A stretch of DNA of 64,000 bases from the NCBI GenBank assembly GCA_044892505.1, contig CM097882.1, forward strand, positions 280,674,001 to 280,738,000, read 5' to 3'. Each line of letters begins with the position of its first letter. The stretch's first letter is position 1. The position numbers were made by a program, and so were the translations under genes. The stretch comes from Schmidtea nova. Taxonomy: Eukaryota. The notes under the pieces were generated by a model. The model did not search any database and was not told the origin of the DNA. It saw only the letters and a program-made list of their open reading frames with translations. Positions 10,925 to 40,316 of this stretch are shown piece after piece.

Positions 10925-11944
10925 ATGACAGTTCAAATGTGTAAATTAGTAAATGATAGAAAACAAAACGCACGAAAACGCAAAGTAAGATATAATGTAG
11001 TGTCCGTTGACATCAAATACAGCCAAAAGGCATATGAAAATGTTTATAACCCAGATAAAAAGAAACCCGTTTCTTTAATAAATCATGGGGTCAACTGTTA
11101 CATGAATGCTGCTATCCAAAGCATTTTCTCTCCCCTACAAATAATTTACGAAAGAGAGAATAATATGACTATTCCCACTGACTGTGGAGCTTTGACTTTA
11201 CTAAAGAATATAATGAACTCATATGAAAATGAAGAAAGATTTTCTATTCGAGAATGCATTTCTAAATTTTCAAAGCTCGAGTATTTCGGTAGTCAATTGT
11301 CCTGGAATCAACAGGAAGATGCTCATGAGTTTCTGAATAGTTTTCTTGACAAGTTGTCTAAAGAATTAGGGCGGGTGTCGAAATCGTTCAAAATGCCTTT
11401 TGAGAGTGCACATGATTCTCGTTTCTATTGCGACAATTGTGGAAAGTCCAATACTTCAGAAGGTTCGAGTCTGGTAAAAGAGAAAGTTCTATTTGTGGAT
11501 GTTGGAAAGAACATGAATGAAATGGTTGAGAAATCAACAAGTAACAAGGTCAATGGATTTAGTTGTGAAAATTGTGGAACAAAAGGTACAGCCAGTAACA
11601 AAACGGTCTTTTCAGAACTACCAGAATTTTTAATTATTTGCATCAAAAGATTTACCTATGCTTCGTATTATCAAAATGCAAAGAATTCAGAAAAAATTGA
11701 AATTGAAGAATATATTTCTGTTCCACTTCAACAAAACGACACAGTCAAACAAACACAGTATGAATTAATTTCAATAGTAAATCATCACGGAGGGCTTTTT
11801 GGGGGGCATTATAATAATTTTTTAAAACATCAGAACGTTTGGTACTCGGCAGACGATGAATCTGTAACTGAGGTTAGCTTAGATAAGGCCGTGAGCAGTT
11901 CTGAATGTTCATGTTATATACAAGTTTATGCAAGGAGAAACTAG
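10925..11944 (+). CDS. USP deubiquitinase, array copy 5
   Basis: Protein identical to copy 1. Confidence 0.95.
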   Translation: MTVQMCKLVNDRKQNARKRKVRYNVVSVDIKYSQKAYENVYNPDKKKPVSLINHGVNCYMNAAIQSIFSPLQIIYERENNMTIPTDCGALTLLKNIMNSYENEERFSIRECISKFSKLEYFGSQLSWNQQEDAHEFLNSFLDKLSKELGRVSKSFKMPFESAHDSRFYCDNCGKSNTSEGSSLVKEKVLFVDVGKNMNEMVEKSTSNKVNGFSCENCGTKGTASNKTVFSELPEFLIICIKRFTYASYYQNAKNSEKIEIEEYISVPLQQNDTVKQTQYELISIVNHHGGLFGGHYNNFLKHQNVWYSADDESVTEVSLDKAVSSSECSCYIQVYARRN

Positions 11945-12537
11945 TGTAATTTATTTTATAATAATTATTAAAATTATGGGGTTTGTTTATATTTCAATTT
12001 ATAATATCGATTTTATTATTGCAATTAATTTGTATGTATTTATCTATAATTTACAAATAATAAATTATAAAAATATAATTTTTTCAAATTTATTTAAAGT
12101 AAATAATAAAATTAGTAATATTAACGCTGTTTGTATATTAATTATTAAATAAATGCTATTAATTGTATTTGTGTAAATTGGTTTCAATCTTTGCTTTTTT
12201 AACTTTTATTAGTATTTGAGAAATAGTAAATCTTTTCTGCAATTTTTTTATAATTGTTTCTTATTTAAATTGTACACTTTATTCTCTTAAAAATTATATT
12301 CACATTTCTAAAGTGCAATAATATTTTTAATCTATTAACAAACGATGAATATTCTAGGCAATGCATTTGATTTGCTTAAAATATCTGATTTCAACAAATC
12401 AAATCATTCGATGAAAAACTATAAATACTGAATACTAACTTCAATTTGTCTTTATTAGTAAACTGAATTTGATTAAGACGAATAAACTGAAAACTTTGAC
12501 TAGTGAAATTATATATTATTAATATATAATTTCTATA

Positions 12538-12577
<40 letters not shown>

Positions 12578-13570
12578 TATTTAAAAAGAATAATATTTTA
12601 CTATTATTAATATATAATTATATTTTAACATTTGATTTGTTTAATGGACTTTTTAACTAAATGTTAATATTTTGATTGAATTATTATACGCATTGCACTA
12701 ATTATAAATATCAATGAACTCAAAGTGCTTCAAAAGTAAGTAAACTTGGTTAATAGTGACTAGTAATATAATTACTGATAGATTCTTGTAGAGGATTTTA
12801 TGCCGCGTCTGATGATGTGAAAATGAATTCGATAGGCCGTTTCAATTGGTGGAAAAAGTGAAAATTTTGAAAAACAATAATTTCGTAATTATTTGCATGT
12901 TTTCTTGTAAAGTAGAATATTTCAAGTCAAACAAACTAGGTTTGGGTGAAATCTGTTGAGTAGATTGATGAGAAAATTAAAAAGAGTTAAAAGTGGTAAT
13001 AGTCACAAATTTCATAATTCAATTTTCAGGCTTTATGATTTTCATCACAAAACTCGAAATTTGATGAAAAATGATAAAATTTAGGAAACAATTTCATTTT
13101 ATGTTTTTGCACCTTTGTGTGCACCTTAAATTAAATAATATTTAAGAGACTAAATATTTACCCTGAAAATAGTGTGCTGATAATTTATCATCAAAATACC
13201 TAAAATTACTACTAGTAAAACATAGATTTCACCCTTTCTTCACTTTTGAAATAAAATATCGATTTTGCACTGACAAATCAATATTATCCATAACTTGCAT
13301 TTAAATTGCCACAAGTTCCATTTGAAAAAACCTTTAATAGCACAAATTCGGCACTTTGTATGCGGTTCAGAAATCAGACCAAATTATATGGAAATAGATG
13401 TATGAAACGTTTAACTGCCTCTTTTCGTTTAATTATATTTTGATATAATAATTATATTATTATTCCGTTAATAAACTAGTAATATTTCAAATAAATAAAA
13501 AGAATATTTTCACCAGTATTATTTGTATTGGTAATTATATATTAAACATCTTTAAAAAAGTTGTATAACA

Positions 13571-22510: not shown

Positions 22511-24062
22511 TGTAATTTATTTTATAATAATTATTAAAATCATGGGGTTTGTTTATATTTCAATTTATAATATCGATTTTATTATTGCAATTAATTTGTA
22601 TGTATTTATCTATAATTTACAAATAATAAATTATAAAAATATAATCTTTTCAAATTTATTTAAAGTAAATAATAAAATTAGTAATATTAACGCTGTTTGT
22701 ATATTAATTATTAAATAAATGCTATTAATTGTATTTGTGTAAATTGGTTTCAATCTTTGCTTTTTTAACTTTTATTAGTATTTGAGAAATAGTAAATCTT
22801 TTCTGCAATTTTTTTATAATTGTTTCTTATTTAAATTGTACACTTTATTCTCTTAAAAATTATATTCACATTTCTAAAGTGCAATAATATTTTTAATCTA
22901 TTAACAAACGATGAATATTTTAGGCAATGCATTTTATTTGCTTAAAATATCTGATTTCAACAAATCAAATCATTCGATGAAAAACTATAAATACTGAATA
23001 CTAACTTCAATTTGTCTTTATTAGTAAACTGAATTTGATTAAGACGAATAAACTGAAAACTTTGACTAGTGAAATTATATATTATTAATATATAATTTCT
23101 ATAATTATTATTATAATTATTATTATTATTATTATATTATTTAAAAAGAATAATATTTTACTATTATTAATATATAATTATATTTTAACATTTGATTTGT
23201 TTAATGGACTTTTTAACTAAATGTTAATATTTTGATTGAATTATTATACGCATTGCACTAATTATAAATATCAATGAACTCAAAGTGCTTCAAAAGTAAG
23301 TAAACTTGGTTAATAGTGACTAGTAATATAATTACTGATAGATTCTTGTAGAGGATTTTATGCCGCGTCTGATGATGTGAAAATGAATTCGATAGGCCGT
23401 TTCAATTGGTGGAAAAAGTGAAAATTTTGAAAAACAATAATTTCGTAATTATTTGCATGTTTTCTTGTAAAGTAGAATATTTCAAGTCAAACAAACTAGG
23501 TTTGGGTGAAATCTGTTGAGTAGATTGATGAGAAAATTAAAAAGAGTTAAAAGTGGTAATAGTCACAAATTTCATAATTCAATTTTCAGGCTTTATGATT
23601 TTCATCACAAAACTCGAAATTTGATGAAAAATGATAAAATTTAGGAAACAATTTCATTTTATGTTTTTGCACCTTTGTGTGCACCTTAAATTAAATAATA
23701 TTTAAGAGACTAAATATTTACCCTGAAAATAGTGTGCTGATAATTTATCATCAAAATACCTAAAATTACTACTAGTAAAACATAGATTTCACCCTTTCTT
23801 CACTTTTGAAATAAAATATCGATTTTGCACTGACAAATCAATATTATCCATAACTTGCATTTAAATTGCCACAAGTTCCATTTGAAAAAACGTTTAATAG
23901 CACAAATTCGGCACTTTGTATGCGGTTCAGAAATCAGACCAAATTATATGGAAATAGATGTATGAAACGTTTAACTGCCTCTTTTCGTTTAATTATATTT
24001 TGATATAATAATTATATTATTATTCCGTTAATAAACTAGTAATATTTCAAATAAATAAAAAG

Positions 24063-24068
24063 AATATT
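24063..24068. repeat. Target-site duplication, left copy (AATATT)
   Basis: Empty units read AAAAG-AATATT-TTCACCAG. Here AATATT occurs on both sides of the insert. 21491+2640+16242+6 = 40379, the exact position of the next USP ATG. Confidence 0.97.
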
Positions 24069-24260
24069 AGTAGGCAGACATGAGGAGCCGGGAACAAAGA
24101 ACTATTACGTAATCGATGACGTAACAAAGAACATACCCCCCCTCCCCTTTTTTTTTTTTGCAACCCCCCCCCCTAATTTTTTTTTTTTTTTTTTTTTTAA
24201 TTTACACACACACAGACGATGAGTCATAAAAAAATTTTTTACACACACACACACCATCGA

Positions 24261-24388
24261 TGACTCATTTCAAATTTGAATTTTATGACGTCATCGATGA
24301 CTCATTTCAAATTTGAATTTTATGACGTCATCGCTGACTCATTTCAAATTTGAATTTTATGACGTCATCGATGACTCATTTCAAATTT
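24261..24388 (+). promoter_or_regulatory. 37-bp tandem repeat (3 copies + partial), each with an AP-1 site (TGACTCA) and a CRE site (TGACGTCA)
   Basis: Unit TGACTCATTTCAAATTTGAATTTTATGACGTCATCGA. The repeat is seen directly; the regulatory role is inferred from bZIP consensus motifs. Confidence 0.8.
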
Positions 24389-24707
24389 AAATTTTAAATT
24401 TAAATTCCCAAGGGTCAAATAAGGTCAAACTTTCAAACAAGGGTATCATTCGAAAGGTCTTGGAGAGGTCTATACAATGGTCATACCCTCGAAGGTGTAT
24501 GGAGGGTCCTTAACCTTCAAGGGTCAAAAACCTTCAACCATTTTCAAACCTTATAATATACATATCAAACAAAAGGTAATTGAAGGGTGCACACAATGGT
24601 CATACCTTCCAAGGTCTATGGTGGGTGCTCAACCTTCAAAGGGTACAAAACAAGGATATGAATGTAAGTACGGTTTTCTTAATGACTCATAGGTAAGATT
24701 TATTTGG

Positions 24708-24976
24708 ATGACTCATTGGGATGACTCATCTACATGACTCATTTACATGACTCATCAGTATGACATATCAATATGACGCATCAGTATGACTCATCAATAT
24801 GACGCATCAGTATGACTCATCAGTATGACTCATCAATATGACTCATTAGTATGACTCATTAGTATGACTCATCAGTATGACTCATCGGTATGACTCATTG
24901 GTATGACTCATTAGTATGACTCATCAGTATGACTCATCGGTATGACTCATTGGTATGACTCATCAGTATGACTCAT
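24708..24976 (+). promoter_or_regulatory. 13-bp tandem array of AP-1 sites (21 units, 18 perfect ATGACTCAT)
   Basis: ATGACTCAT(cagt) at a strict 13-bp period from 24708 to 24968. Variants at 24760, 24773 and 24799. One extra site at 24682. Confidence 0.85.
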
Positions 24977-25240
24977 CAACAAAAACAAATATTAACAAAG
25001 ATATAGCAATGCACGTGCAAATTAACAAAGACTTTGCAAAGTGAATGCAAAGAAACAAAGACTAATTTTTAGGGAATTTTAACATTTTTAAGGTCAAAAA
25101 TTCAAAAACATAAAAAACTTAAAATTTTTTAAAAAACATAAAATTTTACAAAACATTTTTTCAAAAACACAAAGTGAGAATTAATCAACATTTATTAATA
25201 AATACACATATATATATATATGACAACAATGTTATTCCAA

Positions 25241-25684
25241 CTATGCAATTCTTGCGCTTTTTATCTTCCAAATTGGAGACATTGATTCTTTTGGATCGAT
25301 TTTATATCCTTGGATGGATATATCAATAAACCAATTTTCATTATCCGTATATTCAACTGATTGAAATGCATCATGAAATTCAGTGTTCCTGTTGTTGATG
25401 AATATAGTTTCATTGCAAGATAATTTCTTGTTGATTTTCGTCAACACTTTATTGATTGCAACAACATCTTCTTTATAAATCTGACCAATCAAGTTGGAAT
25501 ATTGCGAAGTCGAAAGCTTTACCGGATTTGGGACCTTGAAAGAGATTTCGTTTACCAAGAAAAACATTTGGTAATCGTGAAACATCTGAACCGGTCGTAA
25601 ATCAAATTTGTTTTGAGTTGATTTGTTATCGTTCCTAACTGGTTTCATTTTAATTGGACTCAATTTACTGAAAAGATTTTGCAT
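25241..25684 (-). CDS. 147-aa protein encoded within the left TIR (possible OB-fold ssDNA-binding protein)
   Basis: ATG-initiated ORF identical to 38755-39198, with TATA and CCAAT upstream. C-terminal IDISIQGY...SPIWKIKSARI resembles T7 gp2.5-like/NCLDV SSBs (low-confidence inference). Confidence 0.75.
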   Translation of the reverse strand: MQNLFSKLSPIKMKPVRNDNKSTQNKFDLRPVQMFHDYQMFFLVNEISFKVPNPVKLSTSQYSNLIGQIYKEDVVAINKVLTKINKKLSCNETIFINNRNTEFHDAFQSVEYTDNENWFIDISIQGYKIDPKESMSPIWKIKSARIA

Positions 25685-25712
25685 TTTATGAACAATTCTA
25701 TTTTTGTTTTCT

Positions 25713-25746
25713 TATTTATACTCGTCATCGTCTGTGTGCAGCCAAT
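25713..25746 (-). promoter_or_regulatory. Pol II-type core promoter (CCAAT box + TATAAATA) of the left TIR gene
   Basis: TATAAATA on minus strand 25720-25713, CCAAT at 25742-25746, ATG at 25684. Confidence 0.6.
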
Positions 25747-25997
25747 CAGATTCTTGCACATGTCTTGTAAATCAATTGCACATGTCTTGCTAATCAATTG
25801 GCTATGTATTAATAATTGACTTTGTATACATGTTATTATACATTCTTAACTCCATCGATATTATAAAACTTTCTAAAATTATAACAAAACGTAGAAAAAA
25901 AAATCATTTAAATAAATCTTGTATTTTTTATATACATATCACAAAGTTAATTTTATCACAATGTTTATTTTCACATATTGATACTGCGGATACAATC

Positions 25998-26103
25998 TCT
26001 GAACAAACTGGTTTTTGGATGATATGTTTTCTGAACAAACTGGTTTTTGGATGATATGTTTTCTGGACAAACTTTTTTGATATGTTTTCTGCTCAAACTG
26101 ATT
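25998..26103 (+). repeat. Degenerate 26-32 bp minisatellite running into the N gap
   Basis: TCTGAACAAACTGGTTTTTGGATGATATGTTT x2 followed by two shortened variants. Confidence 0.8.
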
Positions 26104-26414
26104 NNNNNNNNNNNNNNNNNNNNNNNNNNNNNNNNNNNNNNNNNNNNNNNNNNNNNNNNNNNNNNNNNNNNNNNNNNNNNNNNNNNNNNNNNNNNNNNNN
26201 NNNNNNNNNNNNNNNNNNNNNNNNNNNNNNNNNNNNNNNNNNNNNNNNNNNNNNNNNNNNNNNNNNNNNNNNNNNNNNNNNNNNNNNNNNNNNNNNNNNN
26301 NNNNNNNNNNNNNNNNNNNNNNNNNNNNNNNNNNNNNNNNNNNNNNNNNNNNNNNNNNNNNNNNNNNNNNNNNNNNNNNNNNNNNNNNNNNNNNNNNNNN
26401 NNNNNNNNNNNNNN
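26104..26414. other. Assembly gap or masked segment (311 N)
   Basis: Run of N; contains the unseen PolB stop codon. Confidence 0.99.
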
Positions 26415-29400
26415 ATATAATCATAATCTTCAAAATAGTTTTCATCCGTTTGTTCATTTGCCTCTGGCATGATATTTGATGGTCCAGGATCATTTATAAC
26501 TATAGAGATATCACCCCCTCTGTAATGGCCATACGCCAAACTCTTATTCTTATCTATCCATTGGCGTTTATCATCTAAGTTTGTTAAGGCCCTCTTTTTA
26601 CTTTTTACACTATACAACTGGTGGTTTTTACTGACTATCCTAAATTGGGGCACAGTATAAATTTTATTATTCCTATAGCAATCAAGATAGGACTCATGAC
26701 AAATTTCGGTATCCTCAAGACAAACACCCTTCGCTTTAAGACATTCCTCATCCCCTAACAAACTATAACATTTTGGTCTCAAGAACACCCACTCCTTATA
26801 CAGAAACCCTTTATTCTCGTCTTTGAATTTACCAATGACAGAATCAAGGCTCCTACTGTATAAGGGATGATTTGGGTCATAATTAGACGTGTCAAGAAGT
26901 CTATCCCTAATCATAGCATCTAACAAGGTATTCAAGGAAAGATTTTTCACCTCTAAAAAGAAAGAATCCGTGTCACCAGCTACAATATTTATCTCACAAT
27001 TAAACTCAGTGCGATAACTTTCTAATTCTTCATATTGTAGCTGGTACATGCGAAGTTTGGATAAATCTAGTACAGTTTGTCCAATGTAACTAGGTCTATC
27101 CAAACATACTGTTTCTTTTCTTAACAATACGGCGATAAGATCATTGTCAATTCTAGTTGTTTTTCGAAAATATGGTTTTGATGTGTAGGTTATTAATTTT
27201 TCCAGATTATTACACAACCGTAAGTTAATTCTTTTCTTAAGATTCTCTACGGTCTTACCGTAGAGACTATTATTAATTAATTTAAAATAATTACGATCCA
27301 GCTTGTTTGTACTTGCTGCTCGTTTTTGGGTGTTTATATTAATAAAATTTTTAAAAATATAATCTTGTTTAAATTTTATTGCTCTATGAGCTTTTTTAAC
27401 AATAACACCAATTTTAATAAAAATTGCGAGAAGTCGCCAATGGAGCACATAGTTGTTTTTCGGATAGTGTGTCAGTAGCAACTTCTCGACTTTCGAAAAA
27501 GGGGCACACATCTTTTCAGCGGCAACTGGAAAATCATCCAGCTTGTCGTGAATCGACGTCGGTATCTCTAGATCCACTTCAATGGTATAACCATATTCAA
27601 GTGTCTCTAAATCTACCGTTGTGCATTCAGTTAAAATATTAGTTAATAAGTGGTCATCTGTGACCCATTCAAAATTACCGTATGGCAGCTTTTGACTTAA
27701 AGCCCACCCGTACAAATTATTAATATCAATATACAATAAAGAAGTCGTTTCGGAGGATACTACGTGATGCTTGTTGACAAATGTCAAACCACCACGGATC
27801 CCCCCTTCGAAAAAATTATACATCTCCCTATCTTGCAAAAGCTCGATAGGATATTCCAAAGACATCAATGCTGAACTCCAGCTCATACCGGGGATACCCA
27901 AAAAATTTAAGGGTTCAAGTCTATTGTGGGCAATGCTCCTAGCCCGAAACTGCTGAAAATAATCAGCTAAAAGAAAAACATCTAATTTTAAATAAACCAT
28001 CATGTAATCAAAAAGTGATGTACATGAGGTTTCTCTCCAGATTCTTTTAGCCAATTCATACTCCTCTACTTTAACACCTTTCCATATCGGGGGTAATGAG
28101 GTTGTTGATTGTAAAACCTCTAAAGATATTGCTGCATCATAAGGAAAAATGCCTTTACTTTTAATAATTGATCCTTGAAATTCCGACTCAGTTAATGGTA
28201 AAGAAGTCAATGTGTCAACTGCATTTTTCAATGATTCATTAATGAATTGATATGAATCAATAAATTTTACTGTTACTGAGGATATCCTAGCGAATAAACT
28301 CAAAAACTTCTCGCTCGTGACCGGGATACAACTTATATTCCACGATGAATATTTTGACAAACCAAATTTGAGGATATGATGCAAATCATACCCTCGCAAA
28401 TTATGAAACACTACGGGCAGCGTGTGTCTAATTGGCCTTGACAGATTACAAGATGAGCATGCCGCTCCAAGGAAATGGCCGGAAAAGTGGTCATGGTCCC
28501 TTACTTTCCTCACCAACGGCTTATTACACAAGTAACATCTTGTGCTATTTTCATAATTTTCCCTATCATCGTCAGAAAAAATTATTTTTTTATTATAATT
28601 ATTATAATAAAACGGAGCAACAATCTTTTTGCTAATGTATTGAATTTGAGAAAGGAATTTGTCAACACAATCAATACCGTAATATGATTTATAAAATCTC
28701 ACTCCTGTCAGATTATTTATACATAATAACCCTGCAGAAATGGGTATATGCTTCTGAAAGTACTTAGTGTCTTTAGGTAAAATTGCCTCAAAATCGGCAT
28801 AGATGACAAAGGGAGGAGTGACAGTCTTCGACCAGTCAGTAAATTCGAGAAATTTATTAGTAGGAAGGGTGTACATTGTTGTACCTAACTGGTTTTTATC
28901 ACAGAGAATAATATGACGATCAAAAGTATCGTCATTCCTGAAGCCGTTTAGACACCTAGGACACCATTGCGATTGTATTCTGACAGGAGAGATTAAATCA
29001 TTTCTGCAATTTAAAAACTTATTTAGATCTGTTATTGCTGCGTAATGAAACCCTTTACTATTTTGAAGCAAAAGCAGATTTAATGGGGTACCGTCTACAA
29101 CTTTAGAACGGTAAATAATATCTATAAACGGATGTTTCATAACTGCTTCGTTGTCTGTGAGGTCAATTAATGCATGTTCATCATATGAAAGGACATTAAT
29201 ACTGTAACCCGGATTCTGACGCTCAAATTTATCAATGTTACAAAGCCTCATAGGCATATCAGTCGGGTCAAAATTTAATTCGGAAAGATTGTAAGAAGTT
29301 GTTCTATGACGATATTGTCTACTAATACTATTATATCTTAAAATAGCCAAGATGCTATATAAAAAACAAAATTCATCATTTTTATTGTTGACATTAACTA

Positions 29401-29770
29401 TGCAACTTAAATTGATTAGAGAAACCGGTGTTTTAATGAATCTACTACCACTAAGCCTGCTTATTTCCGAAAACTTAGTCAAAATAAAACTTATATATTC
29501 TAATTTAGATATTGTCCAATTCGACCCTTTCTCATTTATACCAATCAATTTTTCATTGAGAAGTGAAATACCTTCCTCAATGAATGTACTGCTCCAAACA
29601 CGGGCAGAATTTGAGATGATGAAACTCTGTAGTTCATTGTCCTTCTCAAATTCTACCTTTAAGCAGAATTGTATTTTTACAGTCTTCATTTTATTTATTA
29701 AATCATTTAATTTATTAGATAAAATTTCAGGTACAGAGACCGTTTTCAAATTTAAACTCGAAACATCCAT
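26415..29770 (-). CDS. polB: Protein-primed family B DNA polymerase (pPolB) with N-terminal terminal-protein/OTU-like region; 3' end lies in the N gap
   Basis: Exo I YADFE, RDHDHFSG..C..CN insert, Exo II HNLRGYD, Exo III YLKLDV, motif A YIDINNLYG, motif B KLINNSLYGK, motif C GDTDS, KCY. First ATG is 29770 (the track start 29797 is TTG; the track end 26093 reads through Ns). Confidence 0.96.
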
Positions 29771-29798
29771 TTTAACAATTACATGACTATCTTTCAAG

Positions 29799-31130
29799 TC
29801 ACCGGTAATCTACCAAGCCACAACCTATTTGATTAATTATAGGTTTATTAATTATAGGTTTATTAATAGAAAATGAATTTAAGATTAAAGGTGTAACCTC
29901 ATCATCACTGATGGTAATAATTTCTTCATCATCACTGATGGTAATGATTTCTTCGTCATCACTGATGGTGATTATATCGTCCAATTTACATTTTTTATTA
30001 GAATTTATTTTTTCATTAATTAATTTTCTTTTATTAATATTTATTTGATTATTTAAAATATTAATTTTGTTATTTAAATTAATTATTTCATCATTTTGAT
30101 TATTAATTGGAATAGTTTGGTTATTAATTGGAATATTTTTATTATTTTGAATATTTGATGTAGTTTGAATATTTTGAATCATTTCACTATGTTGATTATT
30201 ATTTTGGAAATTATTATTATTTGTGATCAATAGATTAAAAAGGGATTTTTTGGAGGGTTGGAATTGAGTAAGATGGAACCTATGTTTAGTAAAGAAAGCC
30301 ATATAGGGGATTACTTCAATTACCTTACAATAGGGACAAATGAAGTGGGTGATACCTCTATATTTATAACTGTAATACTTTTCCATAATGACGTGGCAGT
30401 CATTATGTAAAGTACTATTACAGAAAGTAGTGTATAGTACACCTAAATAAAATAATTATATAAAATAATTATATAAAGTAATTATATAAAATAATTATAT
30501 AAAATGTTTCTTAGATTATTTTCATTTAACATATTATGAAATTATTGAAAAGAAAACTATTTGGTAATACATTAAATGAAAATTTACATTATTATCGTCA
30601 ATAATATAAAACATTAAATATTACTTAGTACAAAAATTTAGGGAATAAAATCAACTTCATTAAAAAAAAAATAATACTTCATATCGAAATAACATATACT
30701 TTATATACTTTATTCAAAAATTAATATTTCTATCTTATTAAAGATTAATTATTTAAATCATTAAAAATAATTATTTAAATCATATTTTATTAAAAAAAAA
30801 AAAACAAATAAAAAACATACATTTTTTCGAAACAGCACCAGAAACGTCAGCATAAGCCGCATCATTTGAATTTAACATATCATAATTATTCATAATTTGT
30901 TCTAAAGAATTTGATATGAAAAGCAAAATTCAACAAAAAAAAAAAATGTACCATTATTTCCATTTATTCCGCTAATCCCATTATTTCCATTTAATCCATT
31001 TCTAATGTTAACATTAGTTCTTGACATATTTCCTAAATTAAAAATAAAAATAATATAAAAGTAATGAAATAATTTTACCATTAACTCCTGATCCGTTGAC
31101 CATTCTTACATTTGATATATTGTTGAACAT
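29799..31130 (-). CDS. Predicted four-exon 285-aa protein: Asn/Gly-rich N-terminus, Cys/His cluster, Asn/Gln/Ile-rich linker, three tandem IITISDDE(E/V) SIM-like repeats
   Basis: Exons 31130-31079, 31032-30952, 30901-30821, 30442-29799. GT-AG introns of 46, 50 and 378 nt, all phase 1, give an open frame into the 195-aa track ORF (29799-30386). The 195-aa part is well supported; the third junction is the least certain. Confidence 0.65.
29895..29975 (-). repeat. 27-bp coding tandem repeat x3 (IITISDDEE)
   Basis: ATAATCACCATCAGTGATGACGAAGAA-like unit, three copies with synonymous differences. Confidence 0.9.
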
Positions 31131-31470
31131 TTTGATAATAATAATAGGTTAAAATTTGATTATAAAATTTTGGGTATAGTAAAAAGTGATTAAAATAATT
31201 AAAACATCTCTTTATATATATGGTCTATTGCATAATAACTATTCGACCAATGAAATTCGTTTATGGATAGAAAAGTTACGCTCACACACACACATAGTAT
31301 TTGTATTAACATACACACACATGTTATACACTATGTAACATTATATATATAATATTTACTAACACATGATTAATCATGCACGATGAATGCAAGGGTCATG
31401 CACGATAACTGCAGGGGTCATGCATCTTTTATTGCAAAACAATTATTTTTAATTAAAAAAAAAAAAAAAA

Positions 31471-31890
31471 TTAAATTTTCAAATAATCTAAAACCCCCAC
31501 CAAGCAACCTTTATAAGCACAGTTTGTGTGATCCCGATATGGACATGAAATATTGTCAGGAAAAACTTCTACTTCCTTAACATTATACTTAATTAATTTT
31601 AGGGACGGAAAATATCTTTTTAAAACAGTAAGTTTATCTTGATCAGTCACATAGAAAATCGCATCAACATCTTCAATTTCTTTCAAAATACATGTTGGAC
31701 AAAAGTGGTCTTCCCCTTCATACCATTCTAATCTGTCATGTTCACCAATTCCAGCCCAAAAAGGAACATCATTATATATCCAATATCTTGGTCGAAAAAT
31801 ATTATTAACATTCATAATACATAATTCTTTAATAATAATCCCTCCGCAATTATCATTATAACCATAAATATCAATAAAATAACAAGTCAT
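31471..31890 (-). CDS. 139-aa Polinton accessory protein, possibly a degenerate DEDD/DnaQ-like fold with C-terminal Cys/His cluster
   Basis: ATG ORF co-oriented with core genes. N-terminal FIDIYGY..IIKEL, central HDRLEWYEG, C-terminal CPYRDHTNCA. Fold call is from recalled pattern only. Confidence 0.6.
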   Translation of the reverse strand: MTCYFIDIYGYNDNCGGIIIKELCIMNVNNIFRPRYWIYNDVPFWAGIGEHDRLEWYEGEDHFCPTCILKEIEDVDAIFYVTDQDKLTVLKRYFPSLKLIKYNVKEVEVFPDNISCPYRDHTNCAYKGCLVGVLDYLKI

Positions 31891-31921
31891 TTTTCTAATA
31901 ATATTTATTAAACTAAATTGT

Positions 31922-32305
31922 TTATACTTTTAACATAGAATTAAGCCATGCAAGGCAATATTGTCCACATGTAATTGTTAATGGATGCTGATACCGAATT
32001 TTATTATATACAATCGGTTTACCCAATGTTTGCAGTTTACTAACTAATAAACCGGGATAATAACATCCGAAGGGATCGAATGCATATACATTGCTTGGTT
32101 TCACATATACAGCAATCCAATGTTCTCCGCCTAGAGTAGATGATTGAGTATTGACGACTATGGCTTGGTTGACATCTAAATAAGGGATTTTATCTAATGG
32201 ATAGACTCCAATAAATTGATTTCCTAACAACTGTTTTCCAATTCGATTAACCTGAATAGAACTATATAAATAAATATATTTGATAAATAATAAAACTTAC
32301 TCCAT
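31922..32305 (-). CDS. pro: Adenain-like cysteine maturation protease, two exons (32305-32301, 32261-31922), 114 aa
   Basis: GEHW (His), FDPFG (Asp), RYQH (Gln), CGQYC (Cys). The track ORF has no ATG. A 39-nt GTAAGT...TATAG intron yields MDSIQVNRIGKQLLGNQFIGVYPLD. Confidence 0.92.
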
Positions 32306-32372
32306 GACAAATTGTTAATTTTAACTTGTACATTTATAATGATAGTTTAAACCAGTAATGTCTGAGCTCTGC

Positions 32373-33593
32373 TCAAACTAATACTGTTCGATTAGCAGTA
32401 ATTTGAATTTCATTTTCAAAAACTCCATATATTATTACATGTACTGGTTCTTCAATGGCTTTAGCAAACTTGATATCCAATCTCAAATTTCCATTTTGAG
32501 GTAATTGACTTTGATTTAAATCGAAATCCGGAGCCAAAACAAATGTAAAGAATGGATATTTGTTTTTAAAATCAGCAAGATTTATACCACAATTTAAGTT
32601 CTTATCTAAATATCCCATATTTCTGACCATCGATTGCATATATGTAGTACAATAATTATCATTTTCGAAATCTTGAGTATATGTTTCTCGATAATCAGTG
32701 TTTTTCGATAAAGATAGAGAAGTTACATTGAAATGTTTGAATTTCGAACTTGATGCAGTATATGATCCATTGTATTGAGTTTCACTTTGAAATGCGACCA
32801 GAATAAAATTTGGCATTCTTCGATCTCCAAATATTTGTTCCTTGTAGAAAGATGATGCACCTTTACCAATAGCAAATTGTACTATTTCTTTGGTTTTCAT
32901 TGGATAAATAGCGTGTTTTGAGTTAAGTCCAACTTGATGTCCAGCTAATACAGAGGGTTCAACGCGAACGCGACGAATCATTAACTTTGCATCAACTAAT
33001 TGACATTTTGGTGCACCGTTTTTTGAATAAAGTGATAGTGAAGAATCAGATCGCTTCAGTCTGATGTGAACATTGACACCTGGTAATAAATATTTCGGTT
33101 GATCCATGAAATCCAGTTGTAGAGATGAACACATTGTAAATAGCTTTGAGCCTTTGATCCACGCTTTTCTCTCGTCAGAATCTCCATATCCCATTGGAGT
33201 AAGACAAGTTTCTTTAGTATCACCATTATAATTTAAAATAGTTTCGATTATTGCCTTGTGTGCATATGTATTGTTTCCACCTTCAATTTTGATATTATTA
33301 AAACCAAGAATCGCGTCCTTGAATAGAGTATGAAACATAAAATTGTTTGGTATAACATCATCAGTTGCAGACAAATCTTTTTTATCGGCATTTACAACTT
33401 TTATTTGAACTGTTAGTAAAGTATCATTCAAATCCAAATATTCAGATTGAGATCCGTTAATGTAAAATTCCACATCATTTCTACCGTCTGTAATAGAATT
33501 CATGGGAAATACTTCTTCAAATGCACCATTTTCAATGACTGCTTGAGGAGATGGTCGGTCGAAAAGACATAATTCAGATTTACCACAAATCAT
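32373..33593 (-). CDS. mcp: Major capsid protein (double jelly-roll, Polinton PY)
   Basis: KSELCLFDRP.Q..IE...EEVFP...VEFYI.G..SEYLDLNDTLL N-terminal signature and C-terminal GNLRLDIKFA...VIIYG; 406 aa. Confidence 0.92.
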   Translation of the reverse strand: MICGKSELCLFDRPSPQAVIENGAFEEVFPMNSITDGRNDVEFYINGSQSEYLDLNDTLLTVQIKVVNADKKDLSATDDVIPNNFMFHTLFKDAILGFNNIKIEGGNNTYAHKAIIETILNYNGDTKETCLTPMGYGDSDERKAWIKGSKLFTMCSSLQLDFMDQPKYLLPGVNVHIRLKRSDSSLSLYSKNGAPKCQLVDAKLMIRRVRVEPSVLAGHQVGLNSKHAIYPMKTKEIVQFAIGKGASSFYKEQIFGDRRMPNFILVAFQSETQYNGSYTASSSKFKHFNVTSLSLSKNTDYRETYTQDFENDNYCTTYMQSMVRNMGYLDKNLNCGINLADFKNKYPFFTFVLAPDFDLNQSQLPQNGNLRLDIKFAKAIEEPVHVIIYGVFENEIQITANRTVLV

Positions 33594-33988
33594 TTTGCAA
33601 ATATAGTTCCATGTCCTTTCATTCGATTGTTTATATACCTTCGATGCTTTTTACGTCTAGGCCCCACTTGTTCCGGTTCAGGTTCAGGTTCAGGCTCATC
33701 TTTATTTAACATACTTGCAACATTAGGAATCATACAAGTCACAGTAGGCAGTACTTTGCCAATAGCAGACAAGGCATTTGTTTTCAATGATGGTAGTATT
33801 TTCTGATCATTCATGATCACATCTTTGGCAGTTTTCAAACCAAAACTACCTATTCGCTTAAGAATTGGGAGTGCAAATCGCCCTATAGTTTTTAACCAAC
33901 CTGATCCATACTGTTTACCTGCAAAATAAGGTAATTCACCACCAGTTTGGCTATTACTATACAATGAAATTATATCTGGATTAATCAT
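33590..33988 (-). CDS. Small virion protein upstream of MCP (adenovirus pVI/core-like, amphipathic helix, basic C-terminus)
   Basis: QTGG...YFAG.QYGSGW followed by amphipathic WLKTIGRFALPILKRIG, (EP)n run and RRKKHRR. Stop overlaps the MCP start (ATGA). Confidence 0.75.
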   Translation of the reverse strand: MINPDIISLYSNSQTGGELPYFAGKQYGSGWLKTIGRFALPILKRIGSFGLKTAKDVIMNDQKILPSLKTNALSAIGKVLPTVTCMIPNVASMLNKDEPEPEPEPEQVGPRRKKHRRYINNRMKGHGTIFAK

Positions 33989-35003
33989 TTAATTTACGAA
34001 AATGTAATGTCAAATGTGTTTTTGAATCTTTTGGAAAATTTATTAATTTACCACTATCGTCACGGATATTTATTTCTATATTGTTTATACATGAGGTAGA
34101 AATAGGTAAATACATTGGATTATCCATTACTATTTGTACAACTTCATCCTGTTCATATTTGTCGATCCATACAGATTTCAGTAGAGGAACCAGAGAATCA
34201 CCGACAATTATTGGTTCGATAATGTTACTGTAAATGAACATTTGTTGATGATGATTAAATAATTTGGCTTTGCGAATTCCTTTAAATTCTCTATCTTGAT
34301 ATTTTTCATATTTTAATCCAAGTGTATTGATTAGTTTTTGATCAAATATAACTTCTTTAACTTCATCTTTCAGTTTAAATTTGAATACATTGTCAATAAT
34401 TTCAACACCTTTAAATATATGAGTACAGAAAAATGTCAAATAATTATATAATTCTTCAACTTTTGTCATGTATATTTCGTCTTGGAATTCATAAAGTAAA
34501 TCTGTTTCTAAATCATAACTTATTGATATATGCATTTTCTCTGATGAATAATCAGAAGGAATAAGCATTTTATAAGTTGAATTGTTGCTAATGATTTTTA
34601 ATTCATTAAACCCAAATTTATTCGCATCTTCTATATTTTCAAACTTAAAATAAAATGGTGTTATATCACAATTTATATGTAAATATATTTTATCTAGATG
34701 TAATTCAACTTTATCATTCAAATATTGAGTATCTTCATAATTAGTTTGAACTTTAAAGTAGTCATTTACAGTTTCAGTTGTCACTGTCGTGTAGTAAATT
34801 TTGCATTGGCTGTAATAAGGAAATTTGTTATATACAAATGTGAAATCTTGCAATGCAACTTCCCAATTACCACGTAAATAAATTGGATTTTGAAGATTGA
34901 CCATGAATTTACTGGCTTCATTATCTGGATGTATTAGTGGACAGCTATTACTCGGTAATATAGTATAAAAATTCACTTTACTAGGTCTTTTGATGATATC
35001 CAT
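33981..35003 (-). CDS. Minor capsid protein (penton, single jelly-roll, Polinton PX)
   Basis: FYTILPSNS...F.V.L.NPI.L.GNWEVAL N-terminus and FIYSNIIEP..VGD..VPLLK...YLP...INNIEINI.D..G C-terminus. First ATG is 35003 (the track start 35027 is GTG). Confidence 0.9.
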   Translation of the reverse strand: MDIIKRPSKVNFYTILPSNSCPLIHPDNEASKFMVNLQNPIYLRGNWEVALQDFTFVYNKFPYYSQCKIYYTTVTTETVNDYFKVQTNYEDTQYLNDKVELHLDKIYLHINCDITPFYFKFENIEDANKFGFNELKIISNNSTYKMLIPSDYSSEKMHISISYDLETDLLYEFQDEIYMTKVEELYNYLTFFCTHIFKGVEIIDNVFKFKLKDEVKEVIFDQKLINTLGLKYEKYQDREFKGIRKAKLFNHHQQMFIYSNIIEPIIVGDSLVPLLKSVWIDKYEQDEVVQIVMDNPMYLPISTSCINNIEINIRDDSGKLINFPKDSKTHLTLHFRKLND

Positions 35004-36027
35004 GAAGGGTTTTGATATCCATGCCACTTTACGTAGTATTGTTTATCCTTACCCACTATTTTAGTTTTTAATATTTTTTGAATTCTAAATACAGTAGGCG
35101 GAGGAATAACTTGTAATTCTTGCTCGTAAAATTTCCCACTAACTACATTATTGTCAGAGTCAGAAATAACATACATGACAGGGTCTTGGCTAGTATTAAT
35201 TTTTGAGATCTGAAATACCTCATCACTCCAATTACTATCAAAATTTTTGATGAATGGCGAAGCGCTAATCTTGCTAATTCGAACATGATCACCAATTTTA
35301 TATTTCGGTTTCTTTATATTAGTTTTTAATTTGTGAGATCCAGTATTTTTCGTTGAAACATCAACAGGTCTCATTCCATTTATACCTTTGTGTGAGGAAT
35401 GATTATAACTATGTATTATTTTTGGCAGTACATTAATCCATGTTTTATTACCTTGATGCACAAAATACTTTTTCAAACGATCTCTTAATGTACGATTAAA
35501 TCGTTCAACATGGGCTGCTTTGAATTGAGAAAACACAGAGTAATGATTAATCCCGACCAAAACTTCTTTAACTTTACTATTGTAAAATTCTTTACCTAAA
35601 TTATAATTAAAAATGTATAGAATAAGTATATATTCTTACCCAAATCAGTTTGCAAATTTTTTGGACGACCTGATTTAAACATAGTTTTGATTGCAACAGC
35701 CATTTCATTTGCTGATTTAGTTTTAGTAGGAATAGCCCGAGCAAATCTATTGAAAACATCGATACATGTTAAAATATATTTATATCCCTTGTTAATATTT
35801 GAATATGGTATCATTTCCATCAAATCCATTTGCCACAAGTCATTAATGCCATATGTTTTATATGCTCTTGTTGGAAATCGTTTCAATGCCGGTTTGTTTA
35901 GACTGTATGCCAGTTGTTCCGATAACCATTTTTGAGTTTCTTTTTTCGAGTTTGGGACTTTTTTCTTTAGCTTTTCGACTCCACCGAAACCGGCGGGATC
36001 TTTTGGGTTTGTCCATATCTTCTCCAT
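34973..36027 (-). CDS. int: Retroviral-like DDE integrase with C-terminal chromodomain, two exons (36027-35640, 35595-34973), 336 aa
   Basis: WQMD, QTD, VERFNRT catalytic triad. A 44-nt GTAAGA...TTTAG intron joins two track ORFs into LQTDLGKEFYN. Chromodomain FRIQKIL...YYVKWHGY..SWI. Confidence 0.95.
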
Positions 36028-36094
36028 TACAACAAGAAGAATTAAAATTCAATTTAAGATTAGGTAAATGACCAATCGGTAATTGACCCATTGT

Positions 36095-36640
36095 TTATGA
36101 TTTTGAGGGGTTTCCTAGTAATCCTACACCACCTAATAAAGATAATGCTAATGGAAGCAATGCCGCAATAAACCCTCCGTGTTGTTTATATATTATTTTG
36201 CGCATTTGCTTTTTATTTTTAGTATTTACTAATGATAATAATGGTTTCTTGTGTTTGTTCAACACGTTTTTATTTGATTTACTGATATTAATTTTACCTT
36301 TGACAACTTTAACTATAACATCAAGTAAATCATCAATTACATAATTGGGAAATGATTGTAAAATATTCATTCTTCTAATGCTTGGAGCCTTGAGTAATGC
36401 ATTGAAAAATGGAAAACTGCGATGATTTTTAGATTTTTTACTTGCAGTTGTCTTTGGCATCTTTGATGTATCGGGTTTTGAATTGTGTGAAATTAGATTC
36501 ATTTTGGGAAAATTTTCGGTGATTAATTTTTTCGGAGGCGTGAAACTCGTTTTAGATGGAATTAGTGTTTCACGATTCTTTTTAATAACTTTTCTAAGTT
36601 TTGATATCTTTGGATGTTTGGATCGTGCTTTAAGTAACAT
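36095..36640 (-). CDS. Basic virion core protein with adenovirus pX/mu-like C-terminus
   Basis: Lys-rich 181 aa ending KQHGG-FIAALLPLALSLLGG, resembling the GG-hydrophobic helix tail of adenoviral pX. Confidence 0.7.
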   Translation of the reverse strand: MLLKARSKHPKISKLRKVIKKNRETLIPSKTSFTPPKKLITENFPKMNLISHNSKPDTSKMPKTTASKKSKNHRSFPFFNALLKAPSIRRMNILQSFPNYVIDDLLDVIVKVVKGKINISKSNKNVLNKHKKPLLSLVNTKNKKQMRKIIYKQHGGFIAALLPLALSLLGGVGLLGNPSKS

Positions 36641-36660
36641 GATTAATTTCTAACATAATT

Positions 36661-37284
36661 TTAACTTTGTTTATAAACCATTGCTCCTTCTTTGTTAAAA
36701 ATATCAGTTCTAACACGTAATTCATCACTACATTGTTGAGTAAAATCGAGAAAAATATATCCATGTGGGACTTTAGTTGCATCTTGAAATGCATTGATCA
36801 AGAAATTCCGATTATTAGGGTAAGCCTGTCTTGCAAGAAAATCGATAACGGTAGCATCTCTAGGATTTTTAAAAATAACTAGATATTGGACATTCAAATT
36901 TCGAGTTCGATGACTACCACCCTGATGAAATAAATTCTGAGTAATAAAAATAACTGTAACTCCTTTATGTCTAGCAATTTTTGTGAATAAATTATTGAAA
37001 TCCTTCTCTTTATTTGCTTCTTGATACAAATCATCAATAATAATTACATCACCACTTCGTAATCTAGACGACCAGTTTTTATCGAATCCTTTTATTATAG
37101 TCATTTTAATCTTACAGAATTGATCTTGAGTCATTCCATGCTCATCATCAGCTCCCCTATGCCAATAAATTTTGTTAAATTTTGATTTGAATAATTTTGA
37201 TTGTAATAATTTACAAACAAATAAAGTTTTTCCACTTCCACTTGGACCGACAATTTGATAAACTGCATCATTTCTTAACTCCAT
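36661..37284 (-). CDS. A32/FtsK-HerA-like genome packaging ATPase
   Basis: Walker A GPSGSGKT, Walker B VIIIDD, ARH, ITQN, KNPRD. First ATG is 37284 (the track start is TTG). Confidence 0.95.
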   Translation of the reverse strand: MELRNDAVYQIVGPSGSGKTLFVCKLLQSKLFKSKFNKIYWHRGADDEHGMTQDQFCKIKMTIIKGFDKNWSSRLRSGDVIIIDDLYQEANKEKDFNNLFTKIARHKGVTVIFITQNLFHQGGSHRTRNLNVQYLVIFKNPRDATVIDFLARQAYPNNRNFLINAFQDATKVPHGYIFLDFTQQCSDELRVRTDIFNKEGAMVYKQS

Positions 37285-37380
37285 TTTCAAAATATTAAGA
37301 GTTTATGGATATTGTTTATATTTGTTTTAATTAATTGATATACTTTTACAAAATATATTTAAAAAATAATCAGTCTTATA

Positions 37381-37851
37381 ATGTTAAGCAACATAAATTA
37401 CAAAGGAAAATGTTCTGTTTCTCATATGAAATTTCCAAATGGTAAGCCACAGCAGATTGTAGATAGGAAAGGTAAGTATCCTATAATATTTTTCAAGTCA
37501 GGTAAATGTAGAATAATGGGATGTAAACAACCTCTTAAAGATCAAGATTTATTATATGAAATAAGAGATTTACAAATACAATCGATTACAGTTACTACAG
37601 ATATTGGAAAATGTGTCAATTTACATGAATTGTCACAAAATCTCTCATGTTCTTATGAGCCAGAAATATTCCCGGCATTGAGATATATAAAGTATAATCC
37701 TTTATGTGTAAACGTATTCAACAGTGGTAAAGTTGTTATACTCGGTATAAAAACGTTAAACTATCATGATTTGGTAGAAGAAATAATTAACGATATCAAA
37801 TCGGTTATTGATGACGTAGAATTCTTGAAATTCTTGTTACTTGTTACGTAA
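37381..37851 (+). CDS. TATA-binding protein (TBP)-like protein
   Basis: Two TBP half-repeats: IIFFKSGKCRIMG, then IQSITVTTD...NLHEL...SYEPEIFPALRY...VNVFNSGKVVILG; 156 aa. Confidence 0.85.
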   Translation: MLSNINYKGKCSVSHMKFPNGKPQQIVDRKGKYPIIFFKSGKCRIMGCKQPLKDQDLLYEIRDLQIQSITVTTDIGKCVNLHELSQNLSCSYEPEIFPALRYIKYNPLCVNVFNSGKVVILGIKTLNYHDLVEEIINDIKSVIDDVEFLKFLLLVT

Positions 37852-37977
37852 TAAAATACAGGATTTTGATTGGTTGTTTGGAAAGAAATACTTCATTTTG
37901 ATTGGAAGACTGTGTGTACGAATTAACAGTATATATATCAACATCATTTTCATTACATTTATATCAACAGTAAAAAA

Positions 37978-38334
37978 ATGTCTCTTAATAAAACCAATGG
38001 TAAGGATTGATTTTTATTTTGAAATTTTTATTAATGAGTTCTTTTGTTTTTAGAAAAACTGATGGGCGTTCTGCTTGAAAAAATGGAGGATTTGTACCCG
38101 AAACTTATGCGTGAATTGGTTTACTGCGCTCCAGAGCTCCTTCCTTATAAAATATTAGCATTAACCGGAATTGATCTCAACAAGGTGTTGCTCGACCATC
38201 AGCATAATATAGAAGAAGAAGAATGCAGCGCCAGCATTATCTGTGCCTATAGATGCGATAGTTGCGTCAATAGGACTCAGAAATACCACAAATGGTTACT
38301 CCGAGAGGAGTTAAGAAACTTTTTAGGACAATAA
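37978..38334 (+). CDS. 100-aa Cys/His-containing hypothetical protein, two exons (37978-37999, 38054-38334)
   Basis: ATG in A-rich context. A 54-nt GTAAGG...TTTTTAG phase-1 intron joins in frame to track ORF 38044-38334. C-terminal C..C..C..C..H cluster. AATAAA overlaps the stop. Confidence 0.7.
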
Positions 38335-38485
38335 ATATTATTATAGTTAAAATGTCTTTTTATTGAGTGTTTTTATAAAGTATTTATTTTCTTAAAACGA
38401 GTTATGAAAGATGTTTTGTAGTTAAAATTAATTTTTATAAAATGTTGATGTTGAATATTTATAGAAAATAATTTTAGTAATAGTA

Positions 38486-38490
<5 letters not shown>

Positions 38491-38523
<33 letters not shown>
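38491..38523 (+). repeat. (AAT)11 microsatellite
   Basis: Direct reading; preceded by TAG/TAA variants. Confidence 0.85.
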
Positions 38524-38527
<4 letters not shown>

Positions 38528-38692
38528 GGATAGACAATAAAATTGCGATAGATATGTAAATAACTTACAACATATATAGAAAGAAATTGCAGTAGATAAT
38601 CATCAACATGTATACAAAGTCAATTATTAATACATAGCCAATTGATTAGCAAGACATGTGCAATTGATTTACAATACATGTGCAAGAATCTG

Positions 38693-38726
38693 ATTGGCTG
38701 CACACAGACGATGACGAGTATAAATA
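38693..38726 (+). promoter_or_regulatory. Pol II-type core promoter (reverse CCAAT + TATAAATA) of the right TIR gene
   Basis: ATTGG at 38693-38697, TATAAATA at 38719-38726, ATG at 38755; AATAAA about 40 nt after the stop. Confidence 0.6.
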
Positions 38727-38754
38727 AGAAAACAAAAATAGAATTGTTCATAAA

Positions 38755-39198
38755 ATGCAAAATCTTTTCAGTAAATTGAGTCCAATTAAAATGAAACCAG
38801 TTAGGAACGATAACAAATCAACTCAAAACAAATTTGATTTACGACCGGTTCAGATGTTTCACGATTACCAAATGTTTTTCTTGGTAAACGAAATCTCTTT
38901 CAAGGTCCCAAATCCGGTAAAGCTTTCGACTTCGCAATATTCCAACTTGATTGGTCAGATTTATAAAGAAGATGTTGTTGCAATCAATAAAGTGTTGACG
39001 AAAATCAACAAGAAATTATCTTGCAATGAAACTATATTCATCAACAACAGGAACACTGAATTTCATGATGCATTTCAATCAGTTGAATATACGGATAATG
39101 AAAATTGGTTTATTGATATATCCATCCAAGGATATAAAATCGATCCAAAAGAATCAATGTCTCCAATTTGGAAGATAAAAAGCGCAAGAATTGCATAG
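38755..39198 (+). CDS. 147-aa protein encoded within the right TIR (identical to 25241-25684)
   Basis: Identical translation; promoter and polyA signal present. Confidence 0.75.
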   Translation: MQNLFSKLSPIKMKPVRNDNKSTQNKFDLRPVQMFHDYQMFFLVNEISFKVPNPVKLSTSQYSNLIGQIYKEDVVAINKVLTKINKKLSCNETIFINNRNTEFHDAFQSVEYTDNENWFIDISIQGYKIDPKESMSPIWKIKSARIA

Positions 39199-40310: not shown

Positions 40311-40316
40311 AATATT
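40311..40316. repeat. Target-site duplication, right copy (AATATT)
   Basis: CCTACT-AATATT-TTCACCAG. Confidence 0.97.

Follow-up and report, generated by a model that had tools for sequence, protein, structure and literature searches.

The described systems closest to the locus presented here include the baculovirus hrs, for whose CRE/TRE clusters Landais et al. 2006 is reportedly the cited source, and the inverted terminal repeats (ITRs) of adenoviruses, which are short, carry few sites and have their auxiliary origin within about 50 bp of the end. The Oct-1 site of the adenovirus ITR is said, in the title of a cited paper, to stimulate replication. Baculovirus hrs are described as repeated viral cis-elements that serve as enhancers and origins, contain clustered CRE- and TRE-like sites with a proposed recruitment of host bZIP factors, and show a correlation between potency and the number of sites; they consist of dispersed units of ~72 bp on a circular genome, with a 30-bp EcoRI-centred palindrome of the IE1 type and 2–14 mostly CRE-like sites each (PMC13513840). 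LTR10A/F, the terminal repeat of an endogenous virus, contains an AP-1 tandem unit of variable copy number, and its reporter activity is reported to be MAPK/TNF-responsive and motif-dependent; this primate retrovirus LTR has a unit of 28–30 bp and its promoter in the same repeat (bioRxiv 10.1101/2021.10.28.466196). For the adenovirus ITR, which belongs to a protein-primed linear replicon related to the element analyzed here, binding of NF1, Oct-1, SP1, and ATF is described (PMC7851563).

Mavericks/Polintons (adintoviruses) are described as elements of about 16 kb with genes for polB, an rve integrase, a packaging ATPase, an adenain protease, and capsid proteins, with terminal inverted repeats (TIRs), a 6-bp target-site duplication (TSD), and an AGT-type end, the ends carrying a short-repeat motif such as (AGT)2 or (AG)3; intact vertebrate Mavericks are reported to be intronless and to have TIRs of 46–1447 bp (PMC8097293, PMC8502044). 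The inverted repeats of polinton-like viruses are discussed as origins, without motifs, in the available text of PMC11296320. bZIP arrays are not mentioned in the available parts of PMC8097293 and PMC8502044, and full-text searches, in a corpus outside of which most subscription journals and Repbase lie, found no description of one in Polinton TIRs. Here, we analyze a window of 64,000 nucleotides from Schmidtea nova, the whole stretch to which all positions refer, which contains a Maverick/Polinton with arrays of AP-1- and CRE-type sites in its TIRs.

A Maverick/Polinton Is Inserted Into a Host Ubiquitin Protease Array

The host setting is a tandem array whose 2640–2646-bp units all contain a 339-aa ubiquitin C-terminal hydrolase ORF without introns, for which ubiquitin specific protease 8 of Schmidtea mediterranea (52%) is the sole named homologue among six matches. 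At least 18 copies of this ORF lie in the window, with 0–1 differences per 1020 bp, and the near-identical units occupy positions 1–24062 and 40317–64000; the array is either a very recent amplification or an assembly artefact. One host unit is split by an insertion (Table 1), which is a Maverick/Polinton according to the characters given in PMC8097293 and PMC8502044. The element end AGTAGG/AGTAGG matches (AGT)2 at five of six positions. With 1.7 kb, the TIRs exceed those of intact vertebrate Mavericks, and they hold a whole gene of 147 aa, which is duplicated identically inside both of them. Away from the arrays and the outermost 190 bp, the alignment of left and right TIR has 1167 columns and shows three substitutions. 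On its right side, the element lies 68 bp upstream of the host ubiquitin protease start codon (40311–40379), and the bZIP-type sites of the right TIR are thus about 100–400 bp away from this codon.

A scan of prokaryotic genome contigs for relatives yielded three loci (L001–L003) from 95 candidates. These loci are Polinton fragments in prokaryotic MAG records and probably represent eukaryotic contamination. Eight element genes match the 12.7-kb contig L001 at 27–57%, with a capsid identity of 46%. The 1118-aa frame beside the assembly gap, which we take to be a family-B polymerase from motifs picked out by eye, matches the polymerase frame of L001 at 31% over 1039 aa. It has no Pfam polB match, and a PDB sequence search gave zero matches, as is expected for the divergent Beta class (PMC8097293, PMC8502044). 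Within the core module, Pfam matches were obtained for the adenain protease (Peptidase_C5, E 9.4e-06), the packaging ATPase (Pox_A32, E 1.4e-06), and the integrase (rve, E 2e-08, plus Chromo). The 406-aa protein, which has 139 unnamed homologues, is presumably the major capsid protein, which in Mavericks/Polintons is a double jelly-roll protein, and the 340-aa ORF presumably encodes a minor one; tblastn of the putative major capsid protein against phages gave no match. The interrupted integrase frame is continuous in L001 and L002, and both of its parts match a single L001 frame at about 50%. The frames of the protease (about 31900–32310) and the integrase (about 34970–36030) are each broken by a short AT-rich stretch with the look of a spliceosomal intron, whereas intact vertebrate Mavericks are intronless. 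A further difference is the presence of a TBP-like gene; in the available part of PMC8502044, such a gene appears solely in the legend of a figure on elements from non-animal datasets. Its product could redirect host transcription. The IDxxG start of the 139-aa ORF recalls, as we assume, a DEDD-type exonuclease fold. An Rfam scan of 24000–40400 gave zero matches.

Table 1. Positions of the element, its genes, and its terminal repeat features in the window.
Feature	Position	Strand	Copy in the right TIR or flank	Remarks
Maverick/Polinton	24069–40310			16,242 bp; ends 5'-AGTAG...CTACT-3'; from junctions, empty sites in neighbouring host units, and gene set
TSD AATATT	24063–24068	+	40311–40316	6 bp; single in uninterrupted host units
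Left TIR	24069–25834	+		1766 bp
Right TIR	38605–40310	-		1706 bp
Terminal module	24093–24129	+	about 40250–40286	AACAAAG, TTACGTAA, TCGA, TGACGTAA, AACAAAG
Isolated ATGAGTCAT	24219–24227	+	40170	G centre
37-bp array	24255–24396	+		3.8 copies (TRF); ATGACTCAT, palindrome TTCAAATTTGAA, ATGACGTCAT
37-bp array, right copy	39966–40144	-		4.8 copies
Spacer	24397–24707	+	39718–39943	Degenerate 119-bp duplication; three RGGTCA; isolated ATGACTCAT at 24682
13-bp array	24708–24980	+		21 units (TRF 24708–24978, 20.8 copies): 9-bp core ATGACTCAT + 4-bp variable spacer
13-bp array, right copy	39453–39660	-		16 units, order differs
Three AACAAAGA and one CACGTG	24994–25061	+	39373–39439	AACAAAGA at 30-bp spacing, diverged flanks
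TIR gene, 147 aa	25241–25684	-	38755–39198 (+), identical	Reads outward toward the arrays
Presumed CCAAT-box-like AGCCAATCA	25740–25748	+	38691	56 bp upstream of the 147-aa gene
Putative family-B DNA polymerase frame	26415–29770	-		Runs into assembly gap 26104–26414
Orphan, 195 aa	29799–30386	-		N-terminal CxxC...HxxH; three IITISDDE repeats
ORF, 139 aa	31471–31890	-		Conserved in L001 (28%); no Pfam match
Core module	31925–37284	-		Adenain protease, presumed major capsid, 132-aa conserved ORF, 340-aa putative minor capsid, rve integrase, 181-aa ORF, packaging ATPase
TBP-like gene	37381–37851	+		Pfam TBP E 3.6e-16; also in L001 (10246–10698, 40% identity)

The TIRs Carry Arrays of AP-1- and CRE-Type Sites

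Exact matching found 24 TGA(C/G)TCA sites in the left TIR, of which 23 fall within 24261–24976 and one lies at 24220, together with three TGACGTCA (24286, 24323, and 24360). The right TIR has 19 TGA(C/G)TCA and four TGACGTCA. There is a single TGA(C/G)TCA and no TGACGTCA in the 12,459-bp element interior, and no TGA(C/G)TCA in 47,746 bp of host flank, which consists of repeats of one 2.64-kb unit and is effectively a 2.7-kb control. These counts confirm the sequence-only reading from which the analysis started, which had noted dense AP-1 and CRE sites in the left TIR with a mirror image in the right one, and both the 13-bp-period array and the 37-bp unit that it had described were recovered by TRF. 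Most of the left-TIR sites belong to tandem repeats (18 of the 24 to one array and four to another). A super-enhancer is defined by chromatin, as a stitched region of several enhancers in which the Mediator/H3K27ac signal is exceptional; the sites, which had been proposed as a candidate for one, form a homotypic cluster of 0.9 kb, and a super-enhancer is not definable from sequence.

The earlier reading had missed the terminal TTACGTAA/TGACGTAA pair and five AACAAAG words, as well as the precedents of baculovirus hrs and LTR10. Located 36–55 bp from the terminus, this pair is the first of the bZIP type; its members are 12 bp apart and stand between two AACAAAG that are separated by 30 bp, the outer of which is replaced by ATCAAAG in the right TIR. 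We take the pair to be PAR/ATF-like bZIP sites and AACAAAG to be an HMG-box-like word that fits TCF/Sox-type factors. With AACAAAG beside bZIP-type sites, the module looks combinatorial. The 37-bp unit pairs ATGACGTCAT with ATGACTCAT and shows strong self-complementarity, its CRE and AP-1 sites being inverted near-copies with centres 11.5 bp apart. The isolated ATGACTCAT of the spacer lies 26 bp ahead of the 13-bp array, and neighbouring site centres are throughout either 11.5–13 bp or 25.5–26 bp apart. Besides its three RGGTCA half-sites, the 310-bp spacer contains 15 AAGG(G/T) words. A palindrome, TTTATTAATAAA, at 25191–25202 (mirror near 39231–39242) places an AATAAA poly(A)-like word on both strands; located between the 147-aa gene and the arrays, it could terminate transcripts from either side. 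Copy number and unit order of the arrays differ between the left and right TIR, and, provided that the assembly is correct, the 13- and 37-bp arrays thus have the character of variable tandem repeats.

Site Clustering Is Above Chance After Removal of Tandem Repetition

Dinucleotide shuffles of the left TIR contained a mean of 0.34 and a maximum of four AP-1 sites (n = 2000). Such raw site counts overstate the evidence because most copies sit in two tandem repeats and are not independent. For a collapsed control, each array was reduced to one unit, leaving 807 bp of non-coding TIR. Seven bZIP-type full sites are present in these 807 bp, compared to a shuffle mean of 0.09, and this number was equalled in 0 of 5000 shuffles. 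TGA(S)TCA, with four occurrences in the collapsed TIR, passes a composition-aware correction across all odd-palindrome classes (0 of 4000); the same palindrome test gave p 7e-4 at best in three natural controls, and under a composition-blind control some arm reaches four copies in 1188 of 2000 shuffles. AACAAAG, with five copies in diverged flanks (0 of 5000 shuffles), follows the same pattern of a kept core. Four copies of the nuclear-receptor half-site RGGTCA also remain after collapsing, a number seen in 18 of 5000 shuffles; as this half-site is equally dense in host and interior, it was set aside. The site clustering is real and above chance, and the words, which had been identified as the AP-1 (TRE) and CRE consensus, persist once the tandem inflation is removed.

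The shuffle tests take no account of local duplication. All ATGA(C/CG)TCAT sites may derive from a single seed, given that within the 37-bp unit the CRE site is nearly an inverted copy of the AP-1 site. A chance seed would not be absurd, since 0.14% of random 13-mers contain TGA(S)TCA, a figure that does not count other equally telling motifs.

Core and Spacer of the 13-bp Array Differ in Variability

Among the 37 units of both 13-bp arrays, non-majority letters occupy eight of 333 cells in the core versus 48 of 148 in the spacer. The perfect 9-mer is found in 30 units, ATGACGCAT in four, and other variants in three. C is the centre base in 36 of the 37 units, and the centres seen (C, G, and CG) are all within bZIP grammar. 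The commonest core variant, TGACGCA with four copies, keeps the CGTCA half-site, which is CRE-like, and this is in line with the earlier remark that common variants remain bZIP-like. Of the 13 columns, those of the spacer are the four with the highest variability (minor counts of 11, 14, 13, and 10 versus at most 6), which would occur once in 715 cases with exchangeable columns and only once in 13 if variability forms a contiguous block. Derived alleles have 1, 1, 2, and 4 copies in the core versus 2–13 in the spacer (p 0.019), a spanning-tree count places eight of 13 inferred changes in four of the 13 columns (p 0.021), and counting distinct alleles gives p 0.053. Overall, the p-values for core conservation range from 0.0014 to 0.077, depending on the test. 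No contrast between core and flank exists in the 37-bp array, where seven full units vary at one base altogether. Thus, the statement that flanking bases vary while the core is kept applies to the 13-bp array and does not extend to the 37-bp array. The 9-bp core is probably kept by selection, and this retention is better evidence than the site counts.

Candidate Binding Proteins

Dyads of 7 and 8 bp with A/T outer bases, together with a pair of the TTACGTAA/TGACGTAA type, are read by bZIP dimers. As had been supposed, no bZIP gene was detected in the element: 0 of 73 stop-to-stop frames of at least 45 aa in 24069–38604, on either side of the 311-base N gap (26104–26414), matched the Pfam bZIP model or a basic-region pattern. 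Five four-leucine heptads were rejected as element bZIPs, as they have no basic region and represent chance occurrences. At an E value of 0.01, Pfam gave no match for the short ORFs across the arrays, one of which has 71 aa (24477–24692).

The 147-aa TIR protein has 53 distant homologues and an Atlas lead to Pox_I3/DUF2738. Its structural model (pLDDT 90.9) has its top matches in DUF2815 (Z 7.9, rmsd 2.5 over 98 residues) and ASFV CP312R (Z 7.8, rmsd 4.0 over 123), followed by the Enc34 SSB (Z 7.2) and T7 gp2.5 (Z 6.6), all of these Z values below 8 being middling. The protein is therefore predicted to be an OB-fold ssDNA-binding protein of the T7 gp2.5/Enc34/CP312R type. Since it best matches viral SSBs, it would be a replication protein and not a reader of duplex sites, and as a specific binder of the arrays it was ruled out. 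Weak Pfam matches to ICAT and FGF were below the cut-off and were discarded. The protein does not align to a 128-aa ORF of L001. The 195-aa orphan shows one finger-like motif with a weak C2H2 lead (score 0.83) and a basic patch; its IITISDDE repeats resemble, as we presume, SUMO-interacting motifs. It is a possible nuclear regulator and the sole candidate seen for an element-encoded sequence-specific binder.

Comparison With Related Elements and Known Systems

L001 is the only one of the three relatives that extends to a TIR-like end, which stops short of a recognisable terminus. This end (11232–12666, 1435 bp), the outermost part of which is missing, has repeats of 138, 63, and 24 bp. This partial end of a distant relative has no such arrays and contains one AP-1 site, which counts against the enhancer reading. 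Its recurring words are CGCTATATA and the palindrome ATGCGCGCAT. L002 and L003 have zero AP-1 sites, both being internal fragments. A motif search in the supplement of PMC8097293 gave zero matches in 425,021 characters and is uninformative on related TIRs.

The arrays share with baculovirus hrs the repeated viral cis-element and the clustered CRE- and TRE-like sites. In contrast to the hrs, they consist of near-perfect AP-1 9-mers with a 13-bp period and belong to the TIRs of a linear element that integrates and in which no IE1-like gene was found, and the TIR units measure 13 and 37 bp, unlike the hr unit. By analogy, the Polinton array may work like a baculovirus hr without being a member of this class. 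Compared to LTR10, with which it shares the copy-number-variable AP-1 tandem unit in a viral terminal repeat, the array belongs to a DNA virus-like element, and has units of 13 and 37 bp, about 24 sites, and CRE as well as HMG-like words. The adenovirus ITR has no tandem AP-1 array.

Possible Function of the Arrays

We consider it somewhat more probable than otherwise that the outer 0.9 kb of each TIR acts as an enhancer for the element genes that is bound by host bZIP factors of the AP-1 and ATF/CREB type. A high-affinity seed site would have been amplified by slippage or unequal exchange into the 13-bp and 37-bp repeats, the copy number of which would still be changing, while selection would maintain the 9-bp core. 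The cluster would then enhance, irrespective of its orientation, the activity of promoters within the element itself, with the duplicated gene of the ssDNA-binding protein, whose start codon is nearest at 0.7 kb, as a first target, and element transcription would thereby be tied to host bZIP activity. The arrays lie 3' of the poly(A)-like signal of the nearest gene and not at its promoter, which counts against the enhancer reading; their position downstream of this gene would fit an enhancer rather than a promoter. The bZIP input may be induced by wounding or stress (Jun/Fos, CREB), may be constitutive once cells have differentiated, or may even repress the element; activating and repressing bZIPs are indistinguishable when sequence alone is read.

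The main null is neutral amplification, in which the TIRs of a strand-displacement replicon gather tandem repeats and the amplified unit merely chanced to hold an AP-1 word. This is unlikely in our estimate, although the quick turnover of the arrays (21 versus 16 and 3.8 versus 4.8 units between TIRs three substitutions apart), the repeats of other words at the L001 end, the possible single origin of the sites, and p-values of 0.02–0.08 in the cautious conservation tests would agree with it. It is opposed by the persistence of the cores in five flank contexts and by a terminal pair with different, still bZIP-type letters, by alleles that are spread in the spacer and mostly not in the core, and by the family-wise palindrome test (0/4000). 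The main functional rival is a role in replication, where host factors bound 40–900 bp from the terminus would assist in origin opening or in loading of the protein-primed polymerase, like NFI/Oct-1 at the adenovirus ITR. The 13-bp array lies 640–910 bp from the end, far past the auxiliary origin of adenovirus, but each terminus carries arrays, these follow the 3' end of the gene nearest to them, and the first bZIP-type pair is close to the end. Both the factors bound by the adenovirus ITR, ATF among them (PMC7851563), and the double nature of baculovirus hrs as origins and enhancers (PMC13513840) provide parallels. We judge a replication role to be quite unlikely as the explanation of the arrays; it is compatible with the host-bZIP enhancer reading and not exclusive of it.

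Very little probability is assigned to the arrays binding an element protein, i.e., the 195-aa orphan or the integrase, with an incidental likeness to AP-1. In DNA transposons, repeats in the TIRs are common binding sites of the transposase that the element encodes, which counts for this explanation, as does the weak C2H2 lead of the orphan; the mixed 7-bp and 8-bp spacing (TGA-S-TCA, TGA-CG-TCA) is a bZIP signature and counts against it, the orphan has only one finger-like motif, and the TIR protein is SSB-like. A combination of IE1 palindromes with host sites is described for baculovirus hrs (PMC13513840), which lends an element binder some plausibility. The least likely of the readings is that the palindromes are kept for DNA structure, as hairpins or cruciforms on displaced single strands, and not for protein recognition. 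Three 37-bp units fold with -26.9 kcal/mol versus -6.8 kcal/mol for column-permuted ones (matched in 0 of 200), and the terminal 332 nt reach z = -8.7 against plain shuffles, a value inflated by tandem repetition. For the 13-bp array, in which the majority of the sites lie, a hairpin reading was rejected, as 110 of 200 column-permuted arrays fold equally well. Pairing would also leave the centre base free, yet this base is C in 36 of 37 units, a weak argument given that the units are homogenised.

Within the host-bZIP enhancer reading, the earlier proposal of wiring to JNK/AP-1 and cAMP/ATF signalling, with its likening to an inducible prophage switch, is a narrower claim. That the Polinton senses host wounding or stress (JNK/Jun-Fos, cAMP/CREB) via a copy-number-tunable TIR array and switches on its replication genes, the SSB-like one first, appears rather unlikely. 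In favour of it, the wound-induced genes of planarians are reported to include jun-1 (PMC9849279), and AP-1 and CRE motifs are reported to be more accessible in Hydra early after injury (PMC8049744). An early regeneration cluster of Hydra contains a Maverick entry alongside Jun, Fos, and creb (PMC13465017), which is weak support, since 34 TEs from many families fall into this cluster. Planarian Polintons are described as piRNA-silenced via SMEDWI-2 and de-silenced during normal differentiation (PMC8532177), which a constitutive bZIP input would explain equally well.

Implications for Maverick/Polinton Biology

By analogy with baculovirus hrs and LTR10, the array appears to represent a new setting, the Polinton TIR, for a known design. 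No virions of animal Mavericks/Polintons had been observed as of PMC8097293, and the known reactivation of related protist elements is described as requiring a giant virus. A module of 0.9 kb with named candidate factors would offer a handle on what turns on animal Mavericks/Polintons. Even if it were merely a constitutive enhancer, Polintons would still have in it an equivalent of baculovirus hrs and LTR10. As an enhancer, it would also mean that the element can bring AP-1 enhancers into the vicinity of host genes, as here beside the ubiquitin protease start codon. If the element did sense wounding or stress, Polintons could be reactivated by a trigger that requires no helper virus, and the spread of the element in a planarian would be coupled to regeneration or fission.
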